Assembly: GCA_016839945.1 (NCBI GenBank)
Contig: JAEOTE010000042.1
Coordinates: 1 to 12,857, forward strand
Source: Candidatus Heimdallarchaeota archaeon
GTDB taxonomy: Archaea > Asgardarchaeota > Heimdallarchaeia > Heimdallarchaeales > Heimdallarchaeaceae
Length of the DNA stretch: 12,857 nucleotides
Direction: 5' to 3'
The position numbers were made by a program, and so were the translations under genes. Positions 100 to 12,857 of this stretch are shown piece after piece (position 1 is the stretch's first letter; each line of letters begins with the position of its first letter). The notes under the pieces are model-generated. The model searched no databases. It was given only the letters and a program-made list of their open reading frames with translations, and was not told where the DNA came from.

Positions 100-116
100 C
101 TTCTAAATCATCGTTG

Positions 117-764
117 ATGGCAACTCCCGAATTTGGTACTATAAGCGCTACAAGAATGGAGCTCCTTAATACACGTGCTCGGATACGTTTAGCTCAAAAA
201 GGACACGATCTCCTCAAAGAAAAGATGGACGCACTAGTAATTGAGTTATATGCCATTAAAGATGAAGTTCGTCAAGCTAGAAAACAAGTAGAAGAGGAGT
301 TACTAATTGCGTATCAATCCTTAACAAAAGCGGAAATGATTGTAGGTCCTGATAAAATAAGAGACTTAGCACAGTATGCTCCTTCAGTGTTAGAAATAAA
401 AACACAAACTGTAAGTATTATGGGGGTAAAATCAGCTCGTTTCATTGTTGATGAAGTCCAAAAAGAAGGAGAAGAAGTGTTTTATGGCTTAACTAGCTCA
501 AGCGCACAATTAGATAGAGCTATTGTTTATTTCAGAAAATCTCTTAGAACTCTTATGATAATTGCTGAAAAAATGACCTTATTGGAGAAATTAGCAACTG
601 AAATAAATAAAACAAAAAGAAGAGTAAATGCTCTTAACTATATCTTGATACCAAAACTTAGAGCAACTGCTACTTTTATCGCTAGTACTCTTGAAGAACA
701 AGAGAGAGAAACATTTTCAAGATTAAAGAGAGTTAAAGCTATCTTGGAAGCAAAAAAGAAATAG
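117..764 (+). CDS. atpD: A/V-type ATP synthase subunit D (central stalk)
   Basis: Family motifs ATRMELL..R.R..LAQKGHDLLKEKMDAL, SIMGV and LATEINKTKRRVNALNYILIPKL...I...LEEQERETFSRLKRVK. ATG 117 is preferred over the adjacent TTG 114. Confidence 0.96.
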   Translation: MATPEFGTISATRMELLNTRARIRLAQKGHDLLKEKMDALVIELYAIKDEVRQARKQVEEELLIAYQSLTKAEMIVGPDKIRDLAQYAPSVLEIKTQTVSIMGVKSARFIVDEVQKEGEEVFYGLTSSSAQLDRAIVYFRKSLRTLMIIAEKMTLLEKLATEINKTKRRVNALNYILIPKLRATATFIASTLEEQERETFSRLKRVKAILEAKKK

Positions 765-963: not shown

Positions 964-1827
964 ATGACAATTGTAGATTGGTTTCAAAATTTACCTCCAC
1001 TGGGTTTAGACCCTGGCATTAAAATGATAATTTATCTTCTAGTTATCTTTACACTCCTAAGCAGTTTGATAGTACTTCTTACTACAAGAGCTTACAGAAA
1101 AGGGAAAGGACCCTCTTTGCTGGATTTAGATCTTGATTCAGATATACCGACACCTACTGATATACCTGCATCAGAAAGAATAGCAATTTTAAACATTGAA
1201 AAGGCTAAGTTTGAAGGAGGACAACGTGCATTATCTGATGCTCATAGGAAGAAGGAGATAAGTGAATCAATTTTTGGTAGATTATCTGTTAGATATGCAG
1301 GCGATGTTAAGAAGATTGAGGATGAAATTGAGAAGACATCAAGAGAAGCAGAGGTATCTCAACTTGAGGAAGAATTAAAGAAAATGCAAGGTGATTATTT
1401 AAGCAAGATTAAAGGAGAAGAGACGATAGCAGTTCCAACTCCAACACCAAGTGAAGCACCACCTGCACCTCCTAAAAAGAGGAGAAAAAGAGGTGCACCA
1501 GCAGCAACTCCAACTCCACCAGCACCTACACCAACACCACCAGCACCAAGCGCAGCACCACCACCTCCAACTGTGGGTAAAACACCACCTGCTACAGCTG
1601 TTCCAACACCTCCAATGCCTACAGTACCACCAAAAGTAACACCTCCAAGCGCAGCACCCTCAATTCCAGCACCAACCGTTCCAACTCCCAAACCCCCATC
1701 TGCTACTCCATCTGCAGGAGAAGGAGAAGGAGATTTGTTCGCAAAAAGTACATCTATCGCTGCATTACGCAAAGAAATGCTCAAAGAATTAGACAGACTT
1801 AAGAAATTCATGAGCGAGCAACAGTAA
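964..1827 (+). CDS. Uncharacterised single-pass membrane protein: TM helix, coiled coil, basic patch, Pro/Thr/Ala-rich linker, C-terminal amphipathic helix
   Basis: 287-aa ORF with GAGG upstream. Hydrophobic aa 21-40 followed by RAYRKGK; charged helical aa 71-150; PPKKRRKR aa 169-176; Pro-rich aa 157-250; terminal helix SIAALRKEMLKELDRLKKFM. Confidence 0.9.
   Translation: MTIVDWFQNLPPLGLDPGIKMIIYLLVIFTLLSSLIVLLTTRAYRKGKGPSLLDLDLDSDIPTPTDIPASERIAILNIEKAKFEGGQRALSDAHRKKEISESIFGRLSVRYAGDVKKIEDEIEKTSREAEVSQLEEELKKMQGDYLSKIKGEETIAVPTPTPSEAPPAPPKKRRKRGAPAATPTPPAPTPTPPAPSAAPPPPTVGKTPPATAVPTPPMPTVPPKVTPPSAAPSIPAPTVPTPKPPSATPSAGEGEGDLFAKSTSIAALRKEMLKELDRLKKFMSEQQ
1432..1713 (+). repeat. Low-complexity CCA/ACA/GCA-rich tract encoding Pro/Thr/Ala repeats
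   Basis: Recurrent PTP, PPAP and PSAAP units. Exact 14-bp direct repeat ccaagcgcagcacc at 1546-1559 and 1645-1658. Confidence 0.8.
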
Positions 1828-3116: not shown

Positions 3117-4931
3117 TTAGAGAATAGCAGAAATTGTAGCCCCTCGGCTATATGCATTCATTATTTTTCTTCCAATTTGACTATTCTTATCAATGCTAAT
3201 TTCACTTGTTTTTCCAACTGTTAATTGTATTAGTTCATCTCCATCTATGGAAACAACTACATCTTTTCCAATTAGCAGACTGGGAAAGATCAAATTCACT
3301 TTGTTTTTGATTGGATAAACATCAATTATGAATTCAGCTTCTTCAGTTCTTTCGTCAAAAGTTCTTACATCAATGGATAAACCTAATTTTTGTTCAATTT
3401 CTTCTATTCTTTTTCCATTTTTCCCTATTATCCTTGGTTTGTCTTTTTTAGTTACAAATAATGTTAAAGAATCCGGAGAATTAAAATCAAAGTTATAATC
3501 ATATATAGAATATTTCTTTAGTGTTTTTTGAATAATTGAAGGTGACACAGTTTTTTGAGTCATAAAACTTTTTCTTTTAGAGTCTGACCCTTTAAGCGGA
3601 GCAACAACAATTTGTTCTCCAAAGGTGTATATCTCATATTCTGGGGCATTAGTATGAAAATCTTTCACAATAACTACTGGGCGAGTTAAATCCCTTTCTC
3701 GCATTCCAGTTGGTAATTTAATCGTTAATTCAAGAGTATATGTCTTAGCTATATCTCCCTTATCAATGAAGATAATTGTATCTACAATAGAAGGTATAAC
3801 TCCTAAATCTACTCTTTTGATGAAACGTTGAATTCCATCTATTGCTTGTGTAGCATGAACAACTCCAATTAGCCCAATTCCAGCAAGTCTTAAATCAGAA
3901 TAGGTTTCAAAATCTTTGGTTTTTCGTAATTCGTCATAAATTACATAGTCCGGTCTCATTAGAAGCACTAAATCCGCAGAAGCTGAAATATCACCTTCAA
4001 ATCCAGACATTTGGGTTATTCTGTTATCTACTTGGAGATCTCTTGGATTCTCAAATGTTTTTACAATCCTATCCTTGTCTGCATAAAATTCTGCAATAGC
4101 TGTAGCAAATGTGCTTTTTCCAGCTCCTGGTGGTCCTGCAATAATGATACCATCTGCTTTTTTCTCGATTCTCTCTAATAAAGTAGGATCTAATCTATAA
4201 TCTTTCAAAGAAAGTTTCAATATTGGTTTTACTGCAGTGATTTCCATTGCATCACTGAAAGGAGGTCTTATAATAACTATTCTTGACTTTTTTAGCTGTA
4301 CAACTGTTGTTCCATATTGGTCAGATTCTATAAAACTATCTTTTTCCCTTCTAGCTCTTTCAACTATATCTTTAGATAAATCTTCTAAAAATTCTCTTGA
4401 GAGTATTTCTTCCTCAGATAATGACACTAATTCAAAATTACCTGGTTTTCCTTTCTTTGCTAGAGGACGATTTTCTTCCCTTAGATGAATAGACATAGTA
4501 GTTTCATCAAAATAATCTTCAATTTTCTTTCCTAGGCTTTTTGTTGTTTCTTTGATATAAACAACAGCTAAACCTTCAGCTTTTCCTATTTCAGCCATCA
4601 CTCTATCAGATGTAACAAGGATGGCTTGATATTCCTCTGCCAATTCTCGAATTTTTGCATCTAGTTCTCCAGCAAATGCTCCTCGTATTTGATTATATGT
4701 AGGTCTACTGCCATCTATAATGATGCTAAATCCTTTTTCTGCACAAAAATCTCTCATTCTTTGTAATTCTTCTAAAGCTGCAATTCCAGTTGTTTTAGCT
4801 TGATTTGCCATGTTCTCAATTTCAGCTACAACTACTCTTGATAAGATGATTTCCTCAAGATCTTTTTGTTCTGAAATATATTTTAGAAATTGTCCGTTAA
4901 TAATTGTTGATGTATCAGGAACATACTTCAT
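3117..4931 (-). CDS. PINA-type ATPase: PIN/VapC domain, PilT/VirB11-like P-loop ATPase and KH domain
   Basis: PIN motifs YVPDTS, VVAEIE, GELDAKIRE and VTSD. Walker A GPPGAGKST, KTFENPRDLQ, Walker B RPDYVIYDELR, GVVHA and KH loop IIGKNGKRI. 604 aa. Confidence 0.93.
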   Translation of the reverse strand: MKYVPDTSTIINGQFLKYISEQKDLEEIILSRVVVAEIENMANQAKTTGIAALEELQRMRDFCAEKGFSIIIDGSRPTYNQIRGAFAGELDAKIRELAEEYQAILVTSDRVMAEIGKAEGLAVVYIKETTKSLGKKIEDYFDETTMSIHLREENRPLAKKGKPGNFELVSLSEEEILSREFLEDLSKDIVERARREKDSFIESDQYGTTVVQLKKSRIVIIRPPFSDAMEITAVKPILKLSLKDYRLDPTLLERIEKKADGIIIAGPPGAGKSTFATAIAEFYADKDRIVKTFENPRDLQVDNRITQMSGFEGDISASADLVLLMRPDYVIYDELRKTKDFETYSDLRLAGIGLIGVVHATQAIDGIQRFIKRVDLGVIPSIVDTIIFIDKGDIAKTYTLELTIKLPTGMRERDLTRPVVIVKDFHTNAPEYEIYTFGEQIVVAPLKGSDSKRKSFMTQKTVSPSIIQKTLKKYSIYDYNFDFNSPDSLTLFVTKKDKPRIIGKNGKRIEEIEQKLGLSIDVRTFDERTEEAEFIIDVYPIKNKVNLIFPSLLIGKDVVVSIDGDELIQLTVGKTSEISIDKNSQIGRKIMNAYSRGATISAIL

Positions 4932-5483
4932 TTAATTCTCTCCTAAATCTAGATTTATTTTCTCAAATTCCAACTCACTTACACTGTAATAGGAGACATC
5001 ACCTAAACTATCAATCACAGCAAAAATTAGTAATTTACTTATCTTTTTTGCTTCTGAAACAATCTGATCGATGTCATCAATATTAAATAATGACCCCTCA
5101 ACCATAGGCACTACAAGAGCTAGATGTTGAGCATTTTTTGGTGTTGCACCCCTTTCATAAAGTTCAAAATATTTTTCGTTAATTGAATGTCTCTTAACAA
5201 CATAACCTCTAGCTCTTAGATCTTTAAATAGAAGATAATGAACCAAAAATTCTTTAATGTTATTAGAAAAGAATGCTACAACTTCAGAAAGTGAAAGATT
5301 TTGGTTTTTTGTCTCTTGTACTTCAATTTTTTTCCTTTCCAATAATAATACAGTTTCATAAGGATCTAGTTTTAGATGACCAGATTTTGTGAATTTTCCA
5401 AACCAACCTTGACTGTATATTGAATTACCATTTTTATCTTCTATCAAGGAATATTCATTATGAAGTTTTGCTATTGGGGTCAT
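4932..5483 (-). CDS. endA: tRNA-splicing endonuclease (EndA) family protein, possibly a structural subunit
   Basis: N-domain pattern L.LDPYE...L.E...IEV, then FKDLRARGYVVK, FELYERG and LLIFAVIDSLGDVSYY. Single-unit length of 183 aa. Confidence 0.85.
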   Translation of the reverse strand: MTPIAKLHNEYSLIEDKNGNSIYSQGWFGKFTKSGHLKLDPYETVLLLERKKIEVQETKNQNLSLSEVVAFFSNNIKEFLVHYLLFKDLRARGYVVKRHSINEKYFELYERGATPKNAQHLALVVPMVEGSLFNIDDIDQIVSEAKKISKLLIFAVIDSLGDVSYYSVSELEFEKINLDLGEN

Positions 5484-5548: not shown

Positions 5549-6382
5549 ATGAAAATAAAGAATAAATTACAGAATTCACTGAAAGGTAAAATAGACCCTT
5601 CTTTATTGGATAAAATACCTTCTGGATATTCGGTAATAGGGGATATTGCTATTTTTCATCATATTAATGAAGGTTTAAATTCCATCAAAGAGCATATTGG
5701 GGATTTAGTAATTCAATTTGATCCACAAGTTTCTGTTGTAGTTGAACAAATCGAAACAAAATCCATATATCGTAAACCCGTAATTGAATACATAGCAGGG
5801 GAGAAAAGAGCTTTAACAATCCATAAAGAATACAATACACTTTTTCATATTGATGTTTCAAAAATAACATTTTCTCCAGGGAATAAAGGAGAAAGAGGTT
5901 TTTTAATTAATACAGTAAAAAATGGAGAGATAGTTTGTGATATGTTTGCTTGTATAGGAAATTTATCTCTTCCAATTGTTGTTAACAATCCAAGTATAAC
6001 TGTCTATGGAATAGAAGCAAATAAAGACGCATTTGATTTTTTGAAAAAAAACATAAAAGAAAATGACGTTCAAGGAAGATATCATCCTGTTTTTGGTGAT
6101 AACCGTATTAAAACACCGGAAGGAATTGCTAACAGAGTTATAATGGGATTTTTTGAGACTGACATAATACAATTCACAAAAGCTGTTGATGCAATACAAA
6201 ATGAGGGGTGGATTCATCACCATTTTATTTCATCTCGCAATCTTAATTATAAGATTGAAGATATGATAAAATCTACAAAAAACAAAGTAAAATTCAGAGT
6301 AGAATCAACTGAAATTAGAAAAGTTAAGAAAGTATCTCCTCGCCTTATTCATCATTGCGCAGATATTAAAATACGGAAGTAA
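5549..6382 (+). CDS. taw2: Trm5/Tyw2 (Met-10+) family SAM-dependent enzyme, most like the Taw2 wyosine aminocarboxypropyltransferase
   Basis: IPSGYSVIGDI, TIHKEY...F.IDVSKITFSPGN..ER, DMFACIGNLSLPI, IEAN..AF.FL..NI..N, GDNR, ANRVIMG and GWIHHH. FSPGN and RVIMG favour Tyw2 over Trm5 (RIIMNLP). The start could also be TTG 5522. Confidence 0.8.
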   Translation: MKIKNKLQNSLKGKIDPSLLDKIPSGYSVIGDIAIFHHINEGLNSIKEHIGDLVIQFDPQVSVVVEQIETKSIYRKPVIEYIAGEKRALTIHKEYNTLFHIDVSKITFSPGNKGERGFLINTVKNGEIVCDMFACIGNLSLPIVVNNPSITVYGIEANKDAFDFLKKNIKENDVQGRYHPVFGDNRIKTPEGIANRVIMGFFETDIIQFTKAVDAIQNEGWIHHHFISSRNLNYKIEDMIKSTKNKVKFRVESTEIRKVKKVSPRLIHHCADIKIRK

Positions 6383-6450
6383 TTTTGAGTAAAAACTCAT
6401 GGATTGTTATATTTAGAAAATGTTAAAGCGTATGGATTGAAAGTAAAACA

Positions 6451-6933
6451 ATGTCTAGAGAAAAACCTAATTCTTTCGAACTAAGAAAACTAAGAGGTAT
6501 TGCTGATTACCAATTTGGAAAAGGCTCAGGAGAAGTCTTGTTTCCAAAAGATATAACTATTGAACGATCAAGAGGAACAAAAAGAATCCGTTTTATCTAT
6601 CTAGATAATGAAAGAATCTGTTCTTTTAGAGTTCGAGATGGTTTTTTAATACCGTCATTATTAGGTGGTGAGATTCTCTATAAAAACAATTTTGCACATA
6701 AAGTTAAAGTTATTCTAGAAGCAGAACCTTTTGTAAGAAAAGGTAAATCCTTGTTTGCTAAACACGTTATTGAAGCGGATCAAGGAATTTCTGCAAAAGA
6801 AGAAGTGATTTTGATAAATGAACAAGGAGGCTTCATTGGCATAGGAACATCTAAATTATCTGCTGAATTAATGCTTGAGATGCAAAGTGGAGTTGCTGTT
6901 GATACCAGAAAAGGAGTTGGAGAGAATAAATAA
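6451..6933 (+). CDS. Stand-alone arcTGT C2-like plus PUA domain RNA-binding protein
   Basis: IADYQFGKG.G..LF, S..T.RIR.IY and R.RDG...PS..G, followed by the PUA motif EPFVRKGKSLFAKHVIEADQGI...EEVILI...G..IGIG. Confidence 0.88.
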   Translation: MSREKPNSFELRKLRGIADYQFGKGSGEVLFPKDITIERSRGTKRIRFIYLDNERICSFRVRDGFLIPSLLGGEILYKNNFAHKVKVILEAEPFVRKGKSLFAKHVIEADQGISAKEEVILINEQGGFIGIGTSKLSAELMLEMQSGVAVDTRKGVGENK

Positions 6934-6934
6934 C

Positions 6935-7300
6935 TTACTTCTTGGTTTTAAGTCTCATAATTGCTCCAGCCAAATCTCCCTTTTCCTCTTCTATCGCATT
7001 CCTTGCTTCTTCTTCTGATGCACCAGTTTGATTCATTATTAGTTTTACATCGTCTTCAGAGATAGCAACTGCTGCTGCTTCAACACCAGTACTTCCTTTC
7101 TCCCTTTCTATTCCTGAACCCACCACTTGATAGATTTCTCCACCAAGAATTATTTTACTCACTTGTGGAGAAGGAATAACAATATCTTTATCTTCAAGTC
7201 GGATAATTACTTCCTCTACACCTTCTAACTCTTCAGTTTTCATTTGTCCCCTCATTCTTTTCATTTCTCTGGGACTCATAGGTCTTTTTGGGGTTGCCAT
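6935..7300 (-). CDS. nac: Nascent polypeptide-associated complex protein (NAC plus UBA domain)
   Basis: M.PREMKRM, EELEGVEEVIIR, I..PQV and YQVVG, followed by UBA-like ISEDDVKLIMNQTGASEEEARNAIEEEKGDLAGAIMRL. Confidence 0.95.
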   Translation of the reverse strand: MATPKRPMSPREMKRMRGQMKTEELEGVEEVIIRLEDKDIVIPSPQVSKIILGGEIYQVVGSGIEREKGSTGVEAAAVAISEDDVKLIMNQTGASEEEARNAIEEEKGDLAGAIMRLKTKK

Positions 7301-7306
7301 TTTAAT

Positions 7307-7582
7307 TTACCTGTTTTTTTTCTTCTCAATTTTTTCTTTTTCACTAATGTCTCCAATCATCCCTTCTTTTGGAGCTCTTGTTTTAAGGAAATTCCATCCT
7401 ATCCATGCCATCAAGATTAAGAAAATGAATATAATAATAAAGACTACAATAGCTAGAGCTAAATAGTATTTCAGTGAAATTTGTTTCTCAATTATAGGGA
7501 GTAGAATGGTCCAAACAAAAAGGAAAGCAGCGATAGCAAATGAGCTAAAAATCATTACTATTCCTATTATTTTGTCATTCAT
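7307..7582 (-). CDS. Small two-TM membrane protein, DPM2-like
   Basis: 91 aa with SD-like GAGGT upstream. Two hydrophobic helices, with D..IG, WTILLPII, KYYL, AWIGW..LKT and a Lys/Glu-rich tail. The ORF is well supported; the DPM2 assignment is a by-eye alignment. Confidence 0.7.
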   Translation of the reverse strand: MNDKIIGIVMIFSSFAIAAFLFVWTILLPIIEKQISLKYYLALAIVVFIIIFIFLILMAWIGWNFLKTRAPKEGMIGDISEKEKIEKKKNR

Positions 7583-7636
7583 TCTCTGACCTCTTAAAAA
7601 GAGTATAAACTACATTTATTTAGTTTTTTCCTCTCC

Positions 7637-7966
7637 TTACATCTCTATATCAATGCCTAAAGCCATTTTAATTAAGGCGCGAACTTGATCTTCAGCACTT
7701 TCATATTGAGCTTTTTTTCCTGGGACTTCTACAATTACAGGATAAGGATTCATTCGAATTCTTCTAATCAAATCAGCGTTTGCTTTTGCTACTTCCTCTG
7801 TTATTATTAGGACTGCAATCTCTGGATCATCTGCAATAGTACGTAATAATTTCGCAGACTTTTCAGGTTCTTCTGTATAAATCTCAGAAATTCCTGCTAG
7901 CTTAAATCCCATTGAAGTTTCTTCATCGCCTATGCTTACAATCTTATTCCTTTGTTTAGAACTCAT
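7637..7966 (-). CDS. atpF: A/V-type ATP synthase subunit F
   Basis: KIVSIGDEETSMGFKLAGI, IAVLIITE, PVIVEVP and IKMALGIDI. Confidence 0.95.
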   Translation of the reverse strand: MSSKQRNKIVSIGDEETSMGFKLAGISEIYTEEPEKSAKLLRTIADDPEIAVLIITEEVAKANADLIRRIRMNPYPVIVEVPGKKAQYESAEDQVRALIKMALGIDIEM

Positions 7967-7980
7967 TAAAAATACACTTC

Positions 7981-8289
7981 TTAGAATATATTAGATAAAA
8001 TGTAATCAACTGCTTTTTTCTCTATTTTCTTTGCCTTTTCCTTAAGTTTATTCTGTTCTTCTTCAAAGATGTTGAGGACTTTAACGTATTCCTTTTCTAC
8101 TCTGTCTCCAACACTAGAGAGTATTTTATCAGCTTCTTCTTTAGCTTGGATTTCAGTATCTCTAACTCTTAGTACTGCAGATTTCTCTGCTTCCATAATA
8201 GCGTTCTGTTTTGAAGTTTCAGCTTTCTTTAGCTTTTGTTCACATTTTTTCTCTGTTTCTCGGATAACCTTTAGGAATTCAACACTCAT
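7981..8289 (-). CDS. atpH: A/V-type ATP synthase peripheral stalk subunit H (G)
   Basis: 102-aa Lys/Glu-rich coiled coil starting E.LK.IRE.E and ending EKKAVDYILSNI. Lies 14 bp upstream of subunit F. Confidence 0.8.
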   Translation of the reverse strand: MSVEFLKVIRETEKKCEQKLKKAETSKQNAIMEAEKSAVLRVRDTEIQAKEEADKILSSVGDRVEKEYVKVLNIFEEEQNKLKEKAKKIEKKAVDYILSNIF

Positions 8290-8432: not shown

Positions 8433-9797
8433 ATGAAAAGAAAATTTTTTGGTACAAATGGTATTCGAGGAGAAATCGGAGAACTTTTTACGCCAGTTTT
8501 TGTATCGAAAATGAGTTCAGCTATTGCTACCTTCATGAAAAATAAAGGAACTATGGTTATTGGATCAGATAGCAGAACAAGCAGTCCTGCAGTTAAATAT
8601 GGAGTAATTTCTAGTATACTATCAACTGGAATTGAAGTTATTGATTTAGGTATGGTTCCTACCCCTCTTCTTCAATTTGCTGTTACTTACTTGAAAGTGG
8701 ATTTTGGCATAATGGTTACTGCAAGTCACAATCCACCTCATTTTAATGGAATTAAGGTAGTTGACTATGATGGCATTGAAATCGACATACATAAACAAAA
8801 GTCAATCGAGGAGATTTATGAAGGAGATAAATTTGATTATGTATCATGGGAAAAAAGCAAAGAAGTAACAAAAATTGATTTGATAAAAGAGTATATTGAT
8901 CAAATAACAAGCTTTGTCAATGTTGAAAAAATACAAAAAAGAAAACTCACTTGTGTTGTAGATAGTGGGAATGCTGTAGGTGCGCTTACTACTCCTCTAG
9001 TATTGAAAAACTTGGGAGTTCGAGTATTTAGCATTAACAGTAATTTAGATGGGCATTTTCCAGGTAGAGGAGTGGAGCCTATTCCAAAGAAATTAACATT
9101 AATGGGAAAAACTGCTTTGCAAGCGAAAGCCGACTTTTCTATAGCTCATGATGGAGATGCTGATAGAGCTATTTTTGGGGATGAAAAAGGCGTTGTGCAC
9201 TATGGAGATAAATCTATAGCTTTGTTCCAGAAATGGTTATTACAAGATGAGCCAAACAAGAAGTTTGTTACACCAGTAAGCTCATCTAAAATTATCGAAG
9301 ATGTATCAGAAGAAATTGGTGGTGAAATAGTTTGGACACCAGTTGGATGCATTTATGTGAGTAGAACCATGAAAGAGAAAAATTCCCTACTAGGAGGAGA
9401 AGAGAACGGTGGAATCTTTTATGCTCCTCATCAATGTGTTAGAGATGGTTCAATGGCTGCAGCATTAATGGCTGATATTCTAGCTCAAACTAATAAAACG
9501 TTTAGCAATCTAGTAGAAGATCTTCCACAATATTATCAGAAAAAAGACAGTATAGATTGTCCTAACAAATTGAAAGAAAAAGTAATGGAGTATGTTAAGA
9601 ATAATGTACAAGAAGCTTCAGAGATACTAACAATAGATGGTGTAAAATTGGTTTATCCAGATAGTTGGATTTTAATCAGACCTTCAGGAACTGAACCTAT
9701 ATTCAGAATTTTCGCAGAAGCAAAAACACATGATAAGGCAGAGAAAATGATAATTGATGGCTTAGATTTGGTTAAGAAAGCTCTAAAGAACATATAA
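8433..9797 (+). CDS. Alpha-D-phosphohexomutase (phosphomannomutase/phosphoglucomutase or phosphoglucosamine mutase)
   Basis: FGTNGIRG, catalytic TASHNP, metal loop HDGDADR, sugar loop GGEENGG and phosphate loop IRPSGTEPIFRIFAE. Confidence 0.95.
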   Translation: MKRKFFGTNGIRGEIGELFTPVFVSKMSSAIATFMKNKGTMVIGSDSRTSSPAVKYGVISSILSTGIEVIDLGMVPTPLLQFAVTYLKVDFGIMVTASHNPPHFNGIKVVDYDGIEIDIHKQKSIEEIYEGDKFDYVSWEKSKEVTKIDLIKEYIDQITSFVNVEKIQKRKLTCVVDSGNAVGALTTPLVLKNLGVRVFSINSNLDGHFPGRGVEPIPKKLTLMGKTALQAKADFSIAHDGDADRAIFGDEKGVVHYGDKSIALFQKWLLQDEPNKKFVTPVSSSKIIEDVSEEIGGEIVWTPVGCIYVSRTMKEKNSLLGGEENGGIFYAPHQCVRDGSMAAALMADILAQTNKTFSNLVEDLPQYYQKKDSIDCPNKLKEKVMEYVKNNVQEASEILTIDGVKLVYPDSWILIRPSGTEPIFRIFAEAKTHDKAEKMIIDGLDLVKKALKNI

Positions 9798-9938
9798 TAA
9801 CTGGTTTTTTTCACAAAAACAAATTAAATAACCAAAATTTGATTTAAGAAGTTCTACGTTCAAGATTACCAAGATGTGATTTAACAAAACTTAAAAAAAG
9901 AAACCTAAAAGTTGGGTAACAAACTGAGAGTAATTGAT

Positions 9939-11732
9939 ATGGCAGTAGCTGATTCTGAACAAATTGGTGTAATAGAGAGAATTGCGGGGCCTGTAGTTCA
10001 AGCCTCAAATATGTTAGGTTCAAAGCTTTACGATGTAGCTAGAGTTGGAGAAGAGAAACTAGTTGGTGAGATAATTCGTCTAATTGATGATATAGCTACA
10101 ATTCAAGTTTATGAAAATACAGAGGGTTTAATGCCAGGAGAACCAGTTTATTTAACTAATGCCCCATTATCTGTTGAGCTTGGACCGGGACTAATAAGAC
10201 AAATCTTTGATGGTATTCAAAGACCCCTACCTTTGATTAGACTTCAATCTGGAGATTTCATCAATAGAGGAATAGAAATTCCAGGTCTAGATCACAAGAA
10301 ACTATGGGATTTTGAACCAACAGCAAAAGTTGGAGATAAAGTAGAAGGAGGAGATATAATAGGTGAAATTCCAGAAACACCGACTGTTGACTTTAAATTA
10401 TTGATTCCCCCTAATGTCCGAGGAAAACTAGATTTTATTGCAAAGAAGGGAGATTATACAATTGACGAAATTGCAGCTACTGTTGCAACACCTGAAGGGA
10501 AAAAAGTTGATTTACAATTTTATCACGAATGGCCAGTAAGACAGCCAAGACCATATAGTAGTAGATTACCATCAAATGTCCCCTTAATAACAGGACAAAG
10601 AATTTTTGATACCTTTGCGCCTATAGCGAAAGGAGGAACAGGAGCTATTCCTGGTGGTTTCGGTACAGGAAAAACTGTTAGTCAACATCAGTTAGCCAAA
10701 TGGTCAGATGCCAAAATAGTTGTTTATGTTGGATGTGGAGAAAGAGGTAATGAAATGACTGATGTACTCAGAGAGTTTCCAAGATTAGTAGATCCTTATA
10801 CTGGTGGTCCTCTAATGGATCGAACAGTTTTAATCGCAAATACATCAAATATGCCCGTTGCTGCAAGAGAAGCAAGTGTTTATACTGGAATTACTTTAGC
10901 TGAATTCTTCAGAGATATGGGATATGATGTAGCAATGATGGCGGATAGTACTTCAAGATGGGCTGAAGCCATGAGAGAAATCTCGGGAAGATTAGAAGAG
11001 ATGCCTGGTGAAGAATCATTTCCTGCTTATCTTGCATCTAGGATTGCACAATACTATGAACGAGCAGGAAGAGTACTAACAATTGGAACCAATCCACGTG
11101 AAGCGAGTATAAGTGTTGTTGGTGCAGTTAGTCCTCCAGGTGGTGATTTCAGTGAACCTGTTACACAGAATACATTGAGAATAGTAAAAGTATTTTGGGC
11201 TTTATCTAAGGAATTAGCAAGCCGAAGACATTTTCCTGCAATTGATTACTTGCTTAGTTATACACTTTACTGGTCTGCTTTAGAGAAATATTATGCAGAC
11301 AATGTTAGTCAAGAATTTCCACAATTAAGGGCAGAAGCATTAGCATTACTCCAAAAGGATAAAGAGCTTCAAGATATTGTCGCACTTGTAGGACCTGATG
11401 CATTACCTCCAACTGAAAAAATAGTTTTAGAAACTGCAAGGATGATAAAAGAAGACTTTTTACAACAAAACGCATATCATGATACAGATAGTTTTTGCAG
11501 TCTTCAAAAACAATATTTGATGCTAAAAACGATATTACGTTATTATGAAAAAGCTTCTGAGCTTTATAGACGAGGAATTAATGTTACTGATATTTTTGAG
11601 CACGATATTGTTACAAAAGTAGCTAGAATGAAATATATTGAAAGAAGTGATGTTGAAACTAACCTAAATGAATTAATGAAAGAGATAGATGGTTTAGTTG
11701 CACAAGATTTTGGAGATGAGGGATTAGTATAA
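9939..11732 (+). CDS. atpA: A/V-type ATP synthase catalytic subunit A
   Basis: IQVYE.T, WPVR.PRP, P-loop [41 protein letters not shown] and [16 protein letters not shown] 9939 is preferred over TTG 9912. Confidence 0.98.
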
Positions 11733-11746
11733 GGAAGGTTATAAAA

Positions 11747-12857
11747 ATGACAGTGAAAGAAAAATATGAATCTAGAGAATTTCAAACTGTAACTGAAGTT
11801 TCAGGACCATTAATGTTTGTTGATTTAAAAGAAATGGGTGGAGTATCTTATGGTGAAATAGCAGAAATTACAACTACAACTGGAGAAAGAAGAAGGGGAC
11901 AAGTGTTAGATGTCTCAAAAAATTTAGCCGTCATTCAATGTTTTGAAGGTACTTCAGGATTGGAAACTAAAGATACAATCTGTCGATTTCTAGGTGAAAC
12001 TATGAAAATTGGTGTTAGTCGTGAAATGCTTGGTCGTGTTTTCAATGGAAGAGGAGAACAAATAGATGGGGGTGGGGACATAATACCAGAAAAAATACTT
12101 GATGTTACTGGATCTCCCATAAATCCTTCTGCACGTCGTTATCCAAAAGAGTTTATTCAAACAGGAATTAGTACAATAGATACTTTACTAACACTTGTTC
12201 GTGGTCAAAAATTGCCATTATTCAGTGGAAGTGGGCTTCCACATAATATGCTTGCTGCTCAAATTGCACGCCAAGCTAAAGTTCTAGGTTCAGAAGAGGA
12301 ATTTGCTGTTATTTTTTCTGCAATGGGAATTACTGCTGATGAAGCACGTTTTTTCAGGGATGACTTTGAAGAAACAGGATCTCTTGACAAAGTTGTTTTG
12401 TTCCTTAATCTTGCAGATGATCCAGCGATAGAAAGACTCCTGACACCTAGATTGGCATTGACTGTTGCAGAACATCTTGCATTCGATCACGATTATCATG
12501 TTTTAGTAATTCTTACAGACATAACTGCTTATGCTGAATCTCTCCGAGAAGTAGCTGCTGCACGAAGTGAAGTTCCAAGCAGAAGAGGATACCCAGGATA
12601 TATGTATTCAGATTTCTCTACTATTTACGAAAGAGCAGGAAGAATACATGAGAAAAAAGGATCAATTACTCAAATTCCTATTTTAACACTACCCAATTAT
12701 GATATTACACACCCTGTTCCTGATTTAACCGGGTATATTACAGAAGGTCAAGTTTATGTTGATATAGGATTGAATCGAAAAGGTCTTTACCCCCCAATTA
12801 ATCCTTTGCCTTCACTATCAAGACTCATGAAAGATACTATAGGACAAGGATCTACAA
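11747..12857 (+). CDS. atpB: A/V-type ATP synthase subunit B, 3'-truncated by the window end (absent from the ORF track)
   Basis: My translation from ATG 11747 is open to the end: [25 protein letters not shown]...[19 protein letters not shown]...[17 protein letters not shown]...RRGYPGYMY...[17 protein letters not shown]...[10 protein letters not shown]-like GGAAGGT follows the atpA stop. Confidence 0.98.

Follow-up and report, generated by a model that had tools for sequence, protein, structure and literature searches.

The window analysed here, the whole of a 12,857-bp contig (C9) from an archaeal genome of 3.0 Mb that is 88% complete, contains a 91-residue open reading frame (ORF) whose product (P0001) was likened in a preliminary description to DPM2. 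This raises two questions: whether the likeness reflects common descent or simply the composition of a short hydrophobic protein, and what such a protein would do in an archaeon. DPM2 and PIG-P are small subunits of two ER enzymes, one of which stands at the beginning of the mannose-donor pathway and the other at that of the GPI-anchor pathway. DPM2 is the regulatory subunit of the eukaryotic type-II Dol-P-mannose synthase, in which it acts in complex with DPM3 and DPM1, stabilizing DPM3, which in turn tethers DPM1; it is also a component of the GPI-GlcNAc transferase, of which PIG-P (Gpi19) is a core small subunit. The names carried by orthologues of P0001 are Candidatus Heimdallarchaeota and Heimdallarchaeaceae.

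The hairpin gene and its predicted product

The ORF runs from ATG to stop at positions 7307-7582 on the minus strand, as given by the ORF list and the translation. The four segments first quoted from it (DKIIGIVMIF, WTILLPIIEKQ, LKYYLALAI and MAWIGWNFLKT) all lie within the 91-residue translation. The gene and its surroundings comprise the following features.

6935..7300, minus strand: NAC protein with NAC and UBA domains (Pfam PF01849 and PF19026), 6 bp 3' of the hairpin gene
7307..7582, minus strand: coding sequence of a predicted DPM2/PIG-P-like two-helix membrane protein, P0001 (ORF, Pfam, orthologues, HMM and AF2 model)
7590..7593, minus strand: GAGG, Shine-Dalgarno-like, 8-11 nt 5' of the ATG (by eye, no statistics)
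7604..7609, minus strand: TTTATA, a TATA-box-like hexamer 22-27 nt 5' of the ATG (by eye)
7637..7966, minus strand: A/V-ATPase subunit F, directly 5' of the hairpin gene (Pfam PF01990, E 3.8e-23; synteny kept in relatives)
8433..9797, plus strand: archaeal GlmM-type phosphohexomutase, of the phosphoglucosamine mutase/PGM-PMM family (TIGR03990 and Pfam)

The NAC gene and the hairpin gene are probably co-transcribed, because they lie on the same strand with a spacer of just 6 bp. The TTTATA hexamer is a possible promoter of the hairpin gene itself, which would then have a leaderless transcript or a short leader. The GlmM-type mutase gene is divergent from the hairpin gene, with approximately 850 bp between them; its product scores 529 bits against NCBIfam TIGR03990 (Arch_GlmM; cut-off 439) and contains four PGM_PMM Pfam domains.

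An AF2 model of P0001, built on a 64-sequence alignment (mean pLDDT 83.9), predicts a helical hairpin followed by a C-terminal helix. Helix 1 spans residues ~3-32 and helix 2 residues 37-67, separated by a loop at 33-36, and the charged C-terminal helix covers residues 73-89. The hydrophobic stretches of both helices are evident in the sequence itself, and the model describes a small integral membrane protein in which both helices are transmembrane (TM). Both ends are probably cytoplasmic. Lys67, Arg69 and Lys72 follow immediately after helix 2, so that the positive-inside rule would place the C-terminus in the cytoplasm; since there are two helices, the N-terminus would be cytoplasmic too.

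With its 91 residues and helices at 3-32 and 37-67, P0001 has the size and the two-TM, short-loop layout of a DPM2-like protein. It resembles DPM2 in length (~80-90 aa), in the two-TM hairpin and in a collinear, near-full-length Pfam match. It differs in its charged C-terminal tail of 25 residues, which the 75-position DPM2 model does not cover, and in belonging to the plasma membrane of an archaeon in whose genome no DPM3 was detected.

Foldseek searches with the AF2 model gave no match at E<=0.001. The weak matches included the TM hairpins at the C-termini of ArnC and GtrB, which were considered and set aside: their Z scores of 5.5-6.1 at 7-10 A rmsd (VIA) are no better than those of MsbA or a designed coiled coil, and the likeness of the modelled fold to ArnC and GtrB is that of a generic helical hairpin and is not counted as evidence. 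Sequence searches of the PDB with P0001 and its alignments returned no DPM2, PIG-P or PIG-Y chain, and only chance matches to hydrophobic proteins.

Relationship to DPM2 and PIG-P

The best Pfam match of P0001 is DPM2 (PF07297; E 9.2e-5), with residues 3-68 aligned to positions 2-72 of the 75-position profile. The score of 23.1 bits is below the gathering score of 27.3, and the threshold for family membership is therefore missed. PIG-P (PF08510) is the second match (E 4.3e-4, 20.6 bits, residues 4-73), again below its gathering score of 39.3, and PIG-Y is the third (E 0.014). The lone DPM2 match lies near the noise expected for two-TM proteins, because an unrelated two-TM family, Phage_holin_3_6, attains the same E-value of 9.2e-5 among the orthologues of P0001. 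Both of these points, the sub-threshold scores of P0001 on its own and the similar E-values of the holin family, would be consistent with a DPM2 likeness that is simply a by-product of hydrophobic composition, P0001 being unrelated to DPM2 and PIG-P. The match of P0001 to the DPM2 profile is, however, collinear and near full length, which argues against this explanation.

The relatives of P0001 argue against it more broadly. Thirty close relatives were found in metagenome-assembled genomes of Heimdallarchaeota, and 22 orthologues (55-95% identity) were aligned. DPM2 is the top Pfam family for 16 of these 22 at E<=0.01, the best orthologue reaching E 1.5e-6. Residues M10, I11, S14, F20, F22, W24, T25, I26, L27, P29, Y40, L41 and A44 are invariant throughout the alignment, as are F48, W60, G62, F65, L66, T68, R69, A70, P71 and K72, so that all 22 keep both W-T-I-L-x-P and WIGW..FLKTRAPKE. 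The W.ILLP motif, which formed part of the original comparison with DPM2, is thus borne out as a conserved feature of the orthologues, and the refuting observation, its loss among them, was absent; only its proline remains in the wider archaeal family.

This wider family was reached by profile comparison. When 1.8 billion representatives were searched exhaustively with a profile, just 17 proteins were retrieved, all of them small archaeal two-TM proteins, with Heimdallarchaeaceae, Kariarchaeaceae, Asgardarchaeia, Bathyarchaeota and Geothermarchaeales among the named sources. Three of the 17, P0039, P0041 and P0042, exceed the DPM2 cut-off (the three scores being 30.1, 32.6 and 36.2 bits), and P0041 exceeds the PIG-P cut-off as well (39.8 bits). 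At E<=0.001, DPM2 is matched by 32 and PIG-P by 29 of the 64 members of the family alignment. P0001 itself reaches 67.9 bits on an HMM built from 53 relatives below 36% identity. On a second HMM, made from 25 archaeal proteins that Pfam flags as DPM2 or PIG-P, its score is 55.5 bits (conditional E 3e-19). The reversed sequence scores 1.4 and -0.2 bits, respectively, against the same two HMMs, and the maximum over 4000 shuffled versions of P0001 (2000 full and 2000 segment-preserving shuffles) is 24.4 bits.

Because the family-level profile signal goes beyond composition and family members lie above curated Pfam cut-offs, the kinship is real: P0001 is a genuine, if distant, relative of DPM2 and to the same degree of PIG-P. 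The explanation by composition is largely refuted by these scores and can be considered very improbable. The homology to DPM2 put forward in the preliminary description therefore holds as a distant relationship visible through the family HMM (55.5 bits, against no more than 24.4 for the shuffles), whereas the Pfam score of P0001 alone does not establish it.

The proposed link between the end of helix 2 and a small archaeal family with an AWIGxT..TTPPPxP motif is supported by profile searches and alignments. The consensus of the wider family reads YWALAIP ... AWIGxTMxTTPPPxP; W60 and P71 are invariant in the 64 sequences, conservation is 90% or higher at D3, G7, I61, G62 and T68, and P29 reaches at least 90% in a 20-sequence alignment. 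P0001 carries all of these family positions: the D-K-x-x-G element, the proline after helix 1, the W-I-G near the end of helix 2, and the T..P that follows. In comparison with a member such as Pyrde_0227 of Pyrodictium delaneyi, P0001 has the same length and topology and shares D3, G7, P29, W60, I61, G62, T68 and P71. The branch to which it belongs is nevertheless divergent from the bulk of the family (22-33% identity), with W-T-I-L-x-P and WIGW..FLKTRAPKE as its own invariant motifs and a tail that is basic, not acidic as in the wider family. With PIG-P, the wider family shares YWALAIP and helix-end motifs of the T-T-P-P-P type; the Heimdallarchaeaceae branch has KTRAPKE in place of TTPPPEP.

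The suggestion that P0001 bridges the archaeal family and DPM2 did not survive these comparisons, in that the wider family scores higher (up to 36.2 bits for DPM2 and 39.8 for PIG-P) than the divergent Heimdallarchaeaceae branch. On the profile scores, it is the wider archaeal family that joins the P0001 branch to the eukaryotic DPM2 and PIG-P models, and not vice versa. The branch is a divergent offshoot, and the gain for the window is modest.

Among 251 Asgard genomes, 227 contain a match to the family profile, usually as a single copy (85 of the 89 genomes of high quality have one). The same holds for 73 of 81 genomes from Thermoproteota, which likewise contain a match. Profile and alignment evidence thereby shows P0001 to be the Heimdallarchaeaceae orthologue in a near-universal, single-copy Asgard/Thermoproteota family homologous to DPM2 and PIG-P. 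The kinship of the archaeal proteins to DPM2 and PIG-P was already known, since precomputed PF07297 and PF08510 matches exist for relatives of P0001 and Kay et al. (2025, Nature; PMC12872463) describe the duplication that gave rise to DPM2 and PIGP as being of archaeal origin and earlier than LECA. The supplement to that paper lists the origin of PF07297 as 'Asgard.' and dates the DPM2/PIGP duplication to 2.51 Ga. P0001 is consequently not a new candidate homologue, as had been proposed.

Gene neighbourhood of the hairpin family

Within the family of the window, the gene order TYW2 - PUA - NAC - hairpin - AtpF - 102-aa ORF - GlmM is kept down to approximately 50% protein identity, and all family-level relatives have the NAC and hairpin genes as a pair. 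A broader comparison drew on 25 diverse loci, 20 from other Asgard families and five from contig look-ups. Eight of the 25 have an orthologue of the GlmM-type mutase gene (33-47% protein identity) 0.1-2.3 kb from the hairpin gene, and this proximity is seen in at least five Asgard lineages (families f7, f10 and f27, an Asgardarchaeia lineage and f1, to label them as in the present analysis). In a further Asgard family (f16), a gene for a sugar-1-phosphate nucleotidyltransferase lies within ~1.6 kb of the hairpin gene, and in a separate set of 30 Thermoproteota loci such a gene adjoins it in four, from at least three lineages including Pyrodictium delaneyi. By chance, a gene of one of these types would be expected within 5 kb at a few percent of the loci, against the 40% found, although this is a rough estimate and the lineages are not independent.

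The conserved neighbour could be read in terms of PIG-P. The hairpin protein would then be a subunit of a GlcNAc-lipid transferase resembling the GPI-GlcNAc transferase, using UDP-GlcNAc and having a catalytic partner of the GT4 type. PIG-P is the second Pfam match of P0001 and the best match of many relatives, and a GlmM-type mutase belongs to the route to UDP-GlcNAc. The archaeal GlmM-type mutases are, however, close to enzymes deposited as PGM/PMM, and therefore the neighbour does not single out GlcNAc. In addition, the PIGA-specific domain, PIG-C/GPI2, PIG-Q/Gpi1 and PIG-H all remained under the family cut-offs in the 88%-complete genome, and none had an intact frame: the best E-values were 0.014 for PF08288 and 0.052 for PF06432, each in a frame with two stops, and PF05024 and PF10181 gave no match. 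A function of this PIG-P-like kind is accordingly judged quite unlikely.

The rpS19 operon adjoins the hairpin gene in 10 of the 25 diverse loci, and the linkage to the mutase may therefore be, in part, inherited gene order amid translation and housekeeping genes. Other neighbours of the hairpin gene include genes for AspRS, RNA polymerase subunits and CDC48, and unbiased clustering of the Thermoproteota neighbours returned PhoU, DHODH, a DEAD helicase and an MBL hydrolase. With queries for three GT2 enzymes, no glycosyltransferase gene was found within 1.5 kb of the hairpin gene in the 30 Thermoproteota loci or within 5 kb in the 25 diverse loci.

Neighbours of this kind raise the alternative of a housekeeping membrane protein outside glycosylation, associated for example with the ribosome or the translocon, of which only the eukaryotic descendants were recruited to Dol-P-mannose synthase and the GPI-GlcNAc transferase. 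The probable co-transcription with NAC, in a pair that is conserved across the family, and the adjoining rpS19-L22-S3 operon are consistent with such a role, as are the AspRS, RNA polymerase and CDC48 genes and a near-universal, single-copy distribution like that of an informational gene. Against it, there is no above-noise match to a small subunit of the translocon, signal peptidase or OST (SPC25, E 0.059), and the sugar-activation neighbours recur in lineages without an adjoining ribosomal operon. This alternative seems rather unlikely, if less so than the PIG-P-like one, and a role of the hairpin protein in glycosylation is likely.

A candidate partner enzyme and the probable role of the hairpin protein

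Among the 11 GT2 matches in the genome is a protein of 239 aa that has no hydrophobic segment (G000:C89:98487-99206). Its best match among solved structures is the Dol-P-Man synthase of Pyrococcus furiosus (5mlz), with E 3.6e-28 for the single sequence and E 4.2e-54 for a profile of ten orthologues, which aligns over residues 22-243 and covers the catalytic domain only. The DxDLQHPP motif is present in the 239-aa protein, together with residues equivalent to Arg117, Arg131, Ser135 and Lys178, which hold the phosphate of Dol-P in Dol-P-Man synthase (PMC12992685). Compared with 5MLZ, a type-III Dol-P-mannose synthase, it retains all the metal-, donor- and Dol-P-binding residues, but stops at the point where the Pyrococcus enzyme continues into its four-helix TM domain. 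Its orthologues are all of 227-241 aa. As judged from its sequence, with donor- and Dol-P-binding residues intact, this protein has the TM-less layout of human DPM1 and is a putative catalytic subunit of a Dol-P-mannose synthase. Being TM-less, it needs some route to its lipid substrate, and it is put forward as the leading candidate in this genome for a partner of the hairpin protein. A literature search for DPM1 in combination with Asgard returned nothing relevant. This TM-less catalytic subunit resembling Dol-P-mannose synthase, with all the Dol-P-binding residues, and the recurrent proximity of hairpin genes to sugar-activation genes are the new observations of the present study; as a candidate partner enzyme and a conserved gene link, they add two testable leads.

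A profile search at E<=1e-30 identified a DPM1-like gene in 43 of 91 Asgard genomes, and all but three of these genes are open frames of 224-273 aa. The hairpin gene is present in 38 of these 43 genomes and in 41 of the 48 without a DPM1-like gene at this cut-off. The absence of any phyletic association means that a dedicated tether for DPM1 is not indicated; the hairpin protein may serve the DPM1-like enzyme but cannot exist for that enzyme alone. In the present genome there is no linkage between the two genes, which are on contigs C9 and C89, and the DPM1-like gene is flanked by a Ras-family GTPase gene and a putative TrpF-like ORF, with no adjoining membrane ORF. DPM3 (PF08285) was not found in the 88%-complete genome, the best match having E 0.655 in a frame with a stop, and the hairpin protein is the sole relative of the Dol-P-mannose synthase accessory subunits that was found there. 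Co-folding of the DPM1-like subunit with the hairpin protein gave a score of 0.00 in two runs, which were made without controls and count neither for nor against a complex.

A narrow reading of this pair is a two-subunit, human-type (type-II-like) Dol-P-mannose synthase, in which the hairpin protein, with its presumably cytoplasmic C-terminal helix and as the anchor of the TM-less DPM1-like GT2, does the jobs of both DPM2 and DPM3. Such an arrangement would be in keeping with the TM-less catalytic subunits, their Dol-P-binding residues intact, of the 43 Asgard genomes, with the hairpin protein as the only accessory-subunit relative, and with its layout of two TM helices and a C-terminal helix, which resembles the DPM3 layout described by Ashida et al. 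(2006), as cited in PMC12992685. The distribution of the two genes (38/43 versus 41/48) and their location on separate contigs argue against it, as do several Asgard families (f7, f8, f13, f16 and f24) that have the hairpin gene but almost no DPM1-like match at E<=1e-30. Furthermore, the hairpin gene is near-universal in Thermoproteota too, where Dol-P-mannose synthases with a TM domain of their own occur (PMC12992685). The two-subunit arrangement is doubtful on this balance, though a less remote prospect than a housekeeping or PIG-P-like function. The multi-subunit Dol-P-Man synthase that had been suggested from the hairpin gene thus gains a TM-less DPM1-like enzyme in the same genome, but neither a DPM3 nor an association of the two genes across the 91 Asgard genomes.

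The best explanation, to which we would give a probability of roughly 0.5, is that the hairpin protein is a non-catalytic membrane accessory subunit of a lipid glycosyltransferase acting at the cytoplasmic face, with the TM-less DPM1-like GT2 as candidate partner. This role is inferred because of the homology to two eukaryotic subunits, the conserved residues at the cytoplasmic interface and the recurrent linkage to sugar-activation genes. By analogy with DPM2 and PIG-P, the protein is most likely not itself catalytic; embedded in the membrane, it would bind, stabilize or position a glycosyltransferase whose reaction would transfer a sugar from its nucleotide-activated form to a membrane lipid, either dolichol phosphate or a polar lipid, on the cytoplasmic side. 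The conserved residues are predicted to cluster on this side, with D3-K-x-x-G7 in the N-terminal part and W60-I-G62 ... T68 ... P71 where helix 2 ends. The GT2 enzyme, which lacks a membrane anchor of its own, would be the presumptive partner.

Several observations count against an accessory subunit of this kind, namely that there is no neighbouring glycosyltransferase, no enzyme fusion, no phyletic association with the DPM1-like gene and no DPM3, and that the neighbours include housekeeping genes. With regard to fusions, a Rosetta-stone search for the hairpin joined to an enzyme domain among proteins of 199-2000 aa found none, which is weak evidence.

A more specific and slightly more tentative version than the two-subunit arrangement itself would be that Heimdallarchaeia run a split, human-type Dol-P-mannose synthase, with a soluble DPM1-like subunit held at the membrane by the hairpin protein alone, and that this was the direct precursor of DPM1-DPM2-DPM3 and, after duplication, of the small-subunit core of the GPI-GlcNAc transferase. 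If true, this would place a two-part ancestral Dol-P-mannose synthase in Heimdallarchaeia, which rank with the nearest relatives of eukaryotes known so far. An archaeal counterpart of DPM2 and PIG-P that is near-universal, together with a TM-less DPM1-like enzyme, also offers a simpler system in which to study the function of the hairpin and the assembly of the eukaryotic enzymes.

The results also bear on annotation. Family members, relatives of P0001 among them, are often annotated publicly as 'transcriptional regulator', a name that is unsupported because neither P0001 nor four relatives matched any NCBIfam family and the only consistent Pfam matches of family members are DPM2 and PIG-P. 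The annotation of P0001 can be corrected from hypothetical protein, and that of its relatives from 'transcriptional regulator', to DPM2/PIG-P-like membrane protein. In the one fusion that was seen in the family, P0047 (locus L034), the hairpin is joined to a helix-hairpin-helix domain.

Conserved neighbourhood of the hairpin gene

Across the 25 diverse loci sampled, the gene encoding the two-helix DPM2/PIG-P-like membrane protein (the hairpin) is immediately adjoined by the ribosomal protein S19-L22-S3 operon in 10 (L007, at 6367-6954 on the + strand, L098, L103, L107 and L111-L116), and a GlmM-type mutase also lies within ~2.3 kb in eight of these 10. The hairpin gene and the S19-L22-S3 operon, together with the GlmM-type mutase where present, constitute a block conserved across Asgard lineages.

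Duplication, fusion and naming of the hairpin family

Two copies of the hairpin gene are encoded in the genomes of f2, a sister family within the same order as that of the window. This duplication is an archaeal event, separate from the eukaryotic DPM2/PIG-P split. In addition, at least two hairpins are fused to a C-terminal helix-hairpin-helix domain: P0047, which carries the label Kariarchaeaceae, and the product of a gene in locus L034 (L034:1489-2094, + strand).

In NCBI, UniRef and JGI records, membrane proteins of the hairpin family, including P0041, P0044, P0110 and others, carry the name 'transcriptional regulator' or 'predicted DNA-binding transcriptional regulator'. Neither a DNA-binding domain nor an NCBIfam model supports this name for the family. 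It might, at a guess, have been propagated from the helix-hairpin-helix fusion forms.

A/V-ATPase genes and an adjacent charged ORF

The A/V-ATPase genes are dispersed over the contig; they are listed here with the charged ORF that lies next to the subunit F gene:

114-764 (+), subunit D, isolated at the 5' end of the contig
7637-7966 (-), subunit F, on the strand opposite to D, A and B
7981-8289 (-), 102-aa ORF, highly charged and without a Pfam family
9912-11732 (+), subunit A, at the 3' end of the contig
11747-12856 (+), subunit B, at the 3' end, the gene continuing past the contig edge

Because the window is the entire contig, its two ends, occupied by D (5') and B (3'), give a false likeness of the canonical B-D junction. 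Operon rearrangement or an assembly effect could account for the scatter.

The 102-aa ORF, probably a coiled coil, is retained immediately upstream of atpF in relatives (54-91% identity), and may encode an unrecognized ATPase stalk subunit, either H- or E-like.

Other genes in the window and the neighbour of the GT2

Two further proteins are encoded in the window:

964-1827 (+), 287-aa protein without a Pfam match; its N-terminal segment is hydrophobic, its middle part charged and helical, and it has a long low-complexity stretch rich in Pro, Thr and Ala
3117-4931 (-), 604-aa protein with a PIN domain, a T2SSE/PilT-like ATPase core and KH domains

The gene for the latter adjoins a tRNA-splicing endonuclease gene (4932-5483). 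Elsewhere in the genome, the TM-less Dol-P-mannose-synthase-like GT2 (G000:C89:98487-99206, equivalent to L018:1468-2187, + strand) has as its neighbour a divergent Ras-family small GTPase gene (L018:793-1359, - strand; Pfam Ras, E 3e-48).
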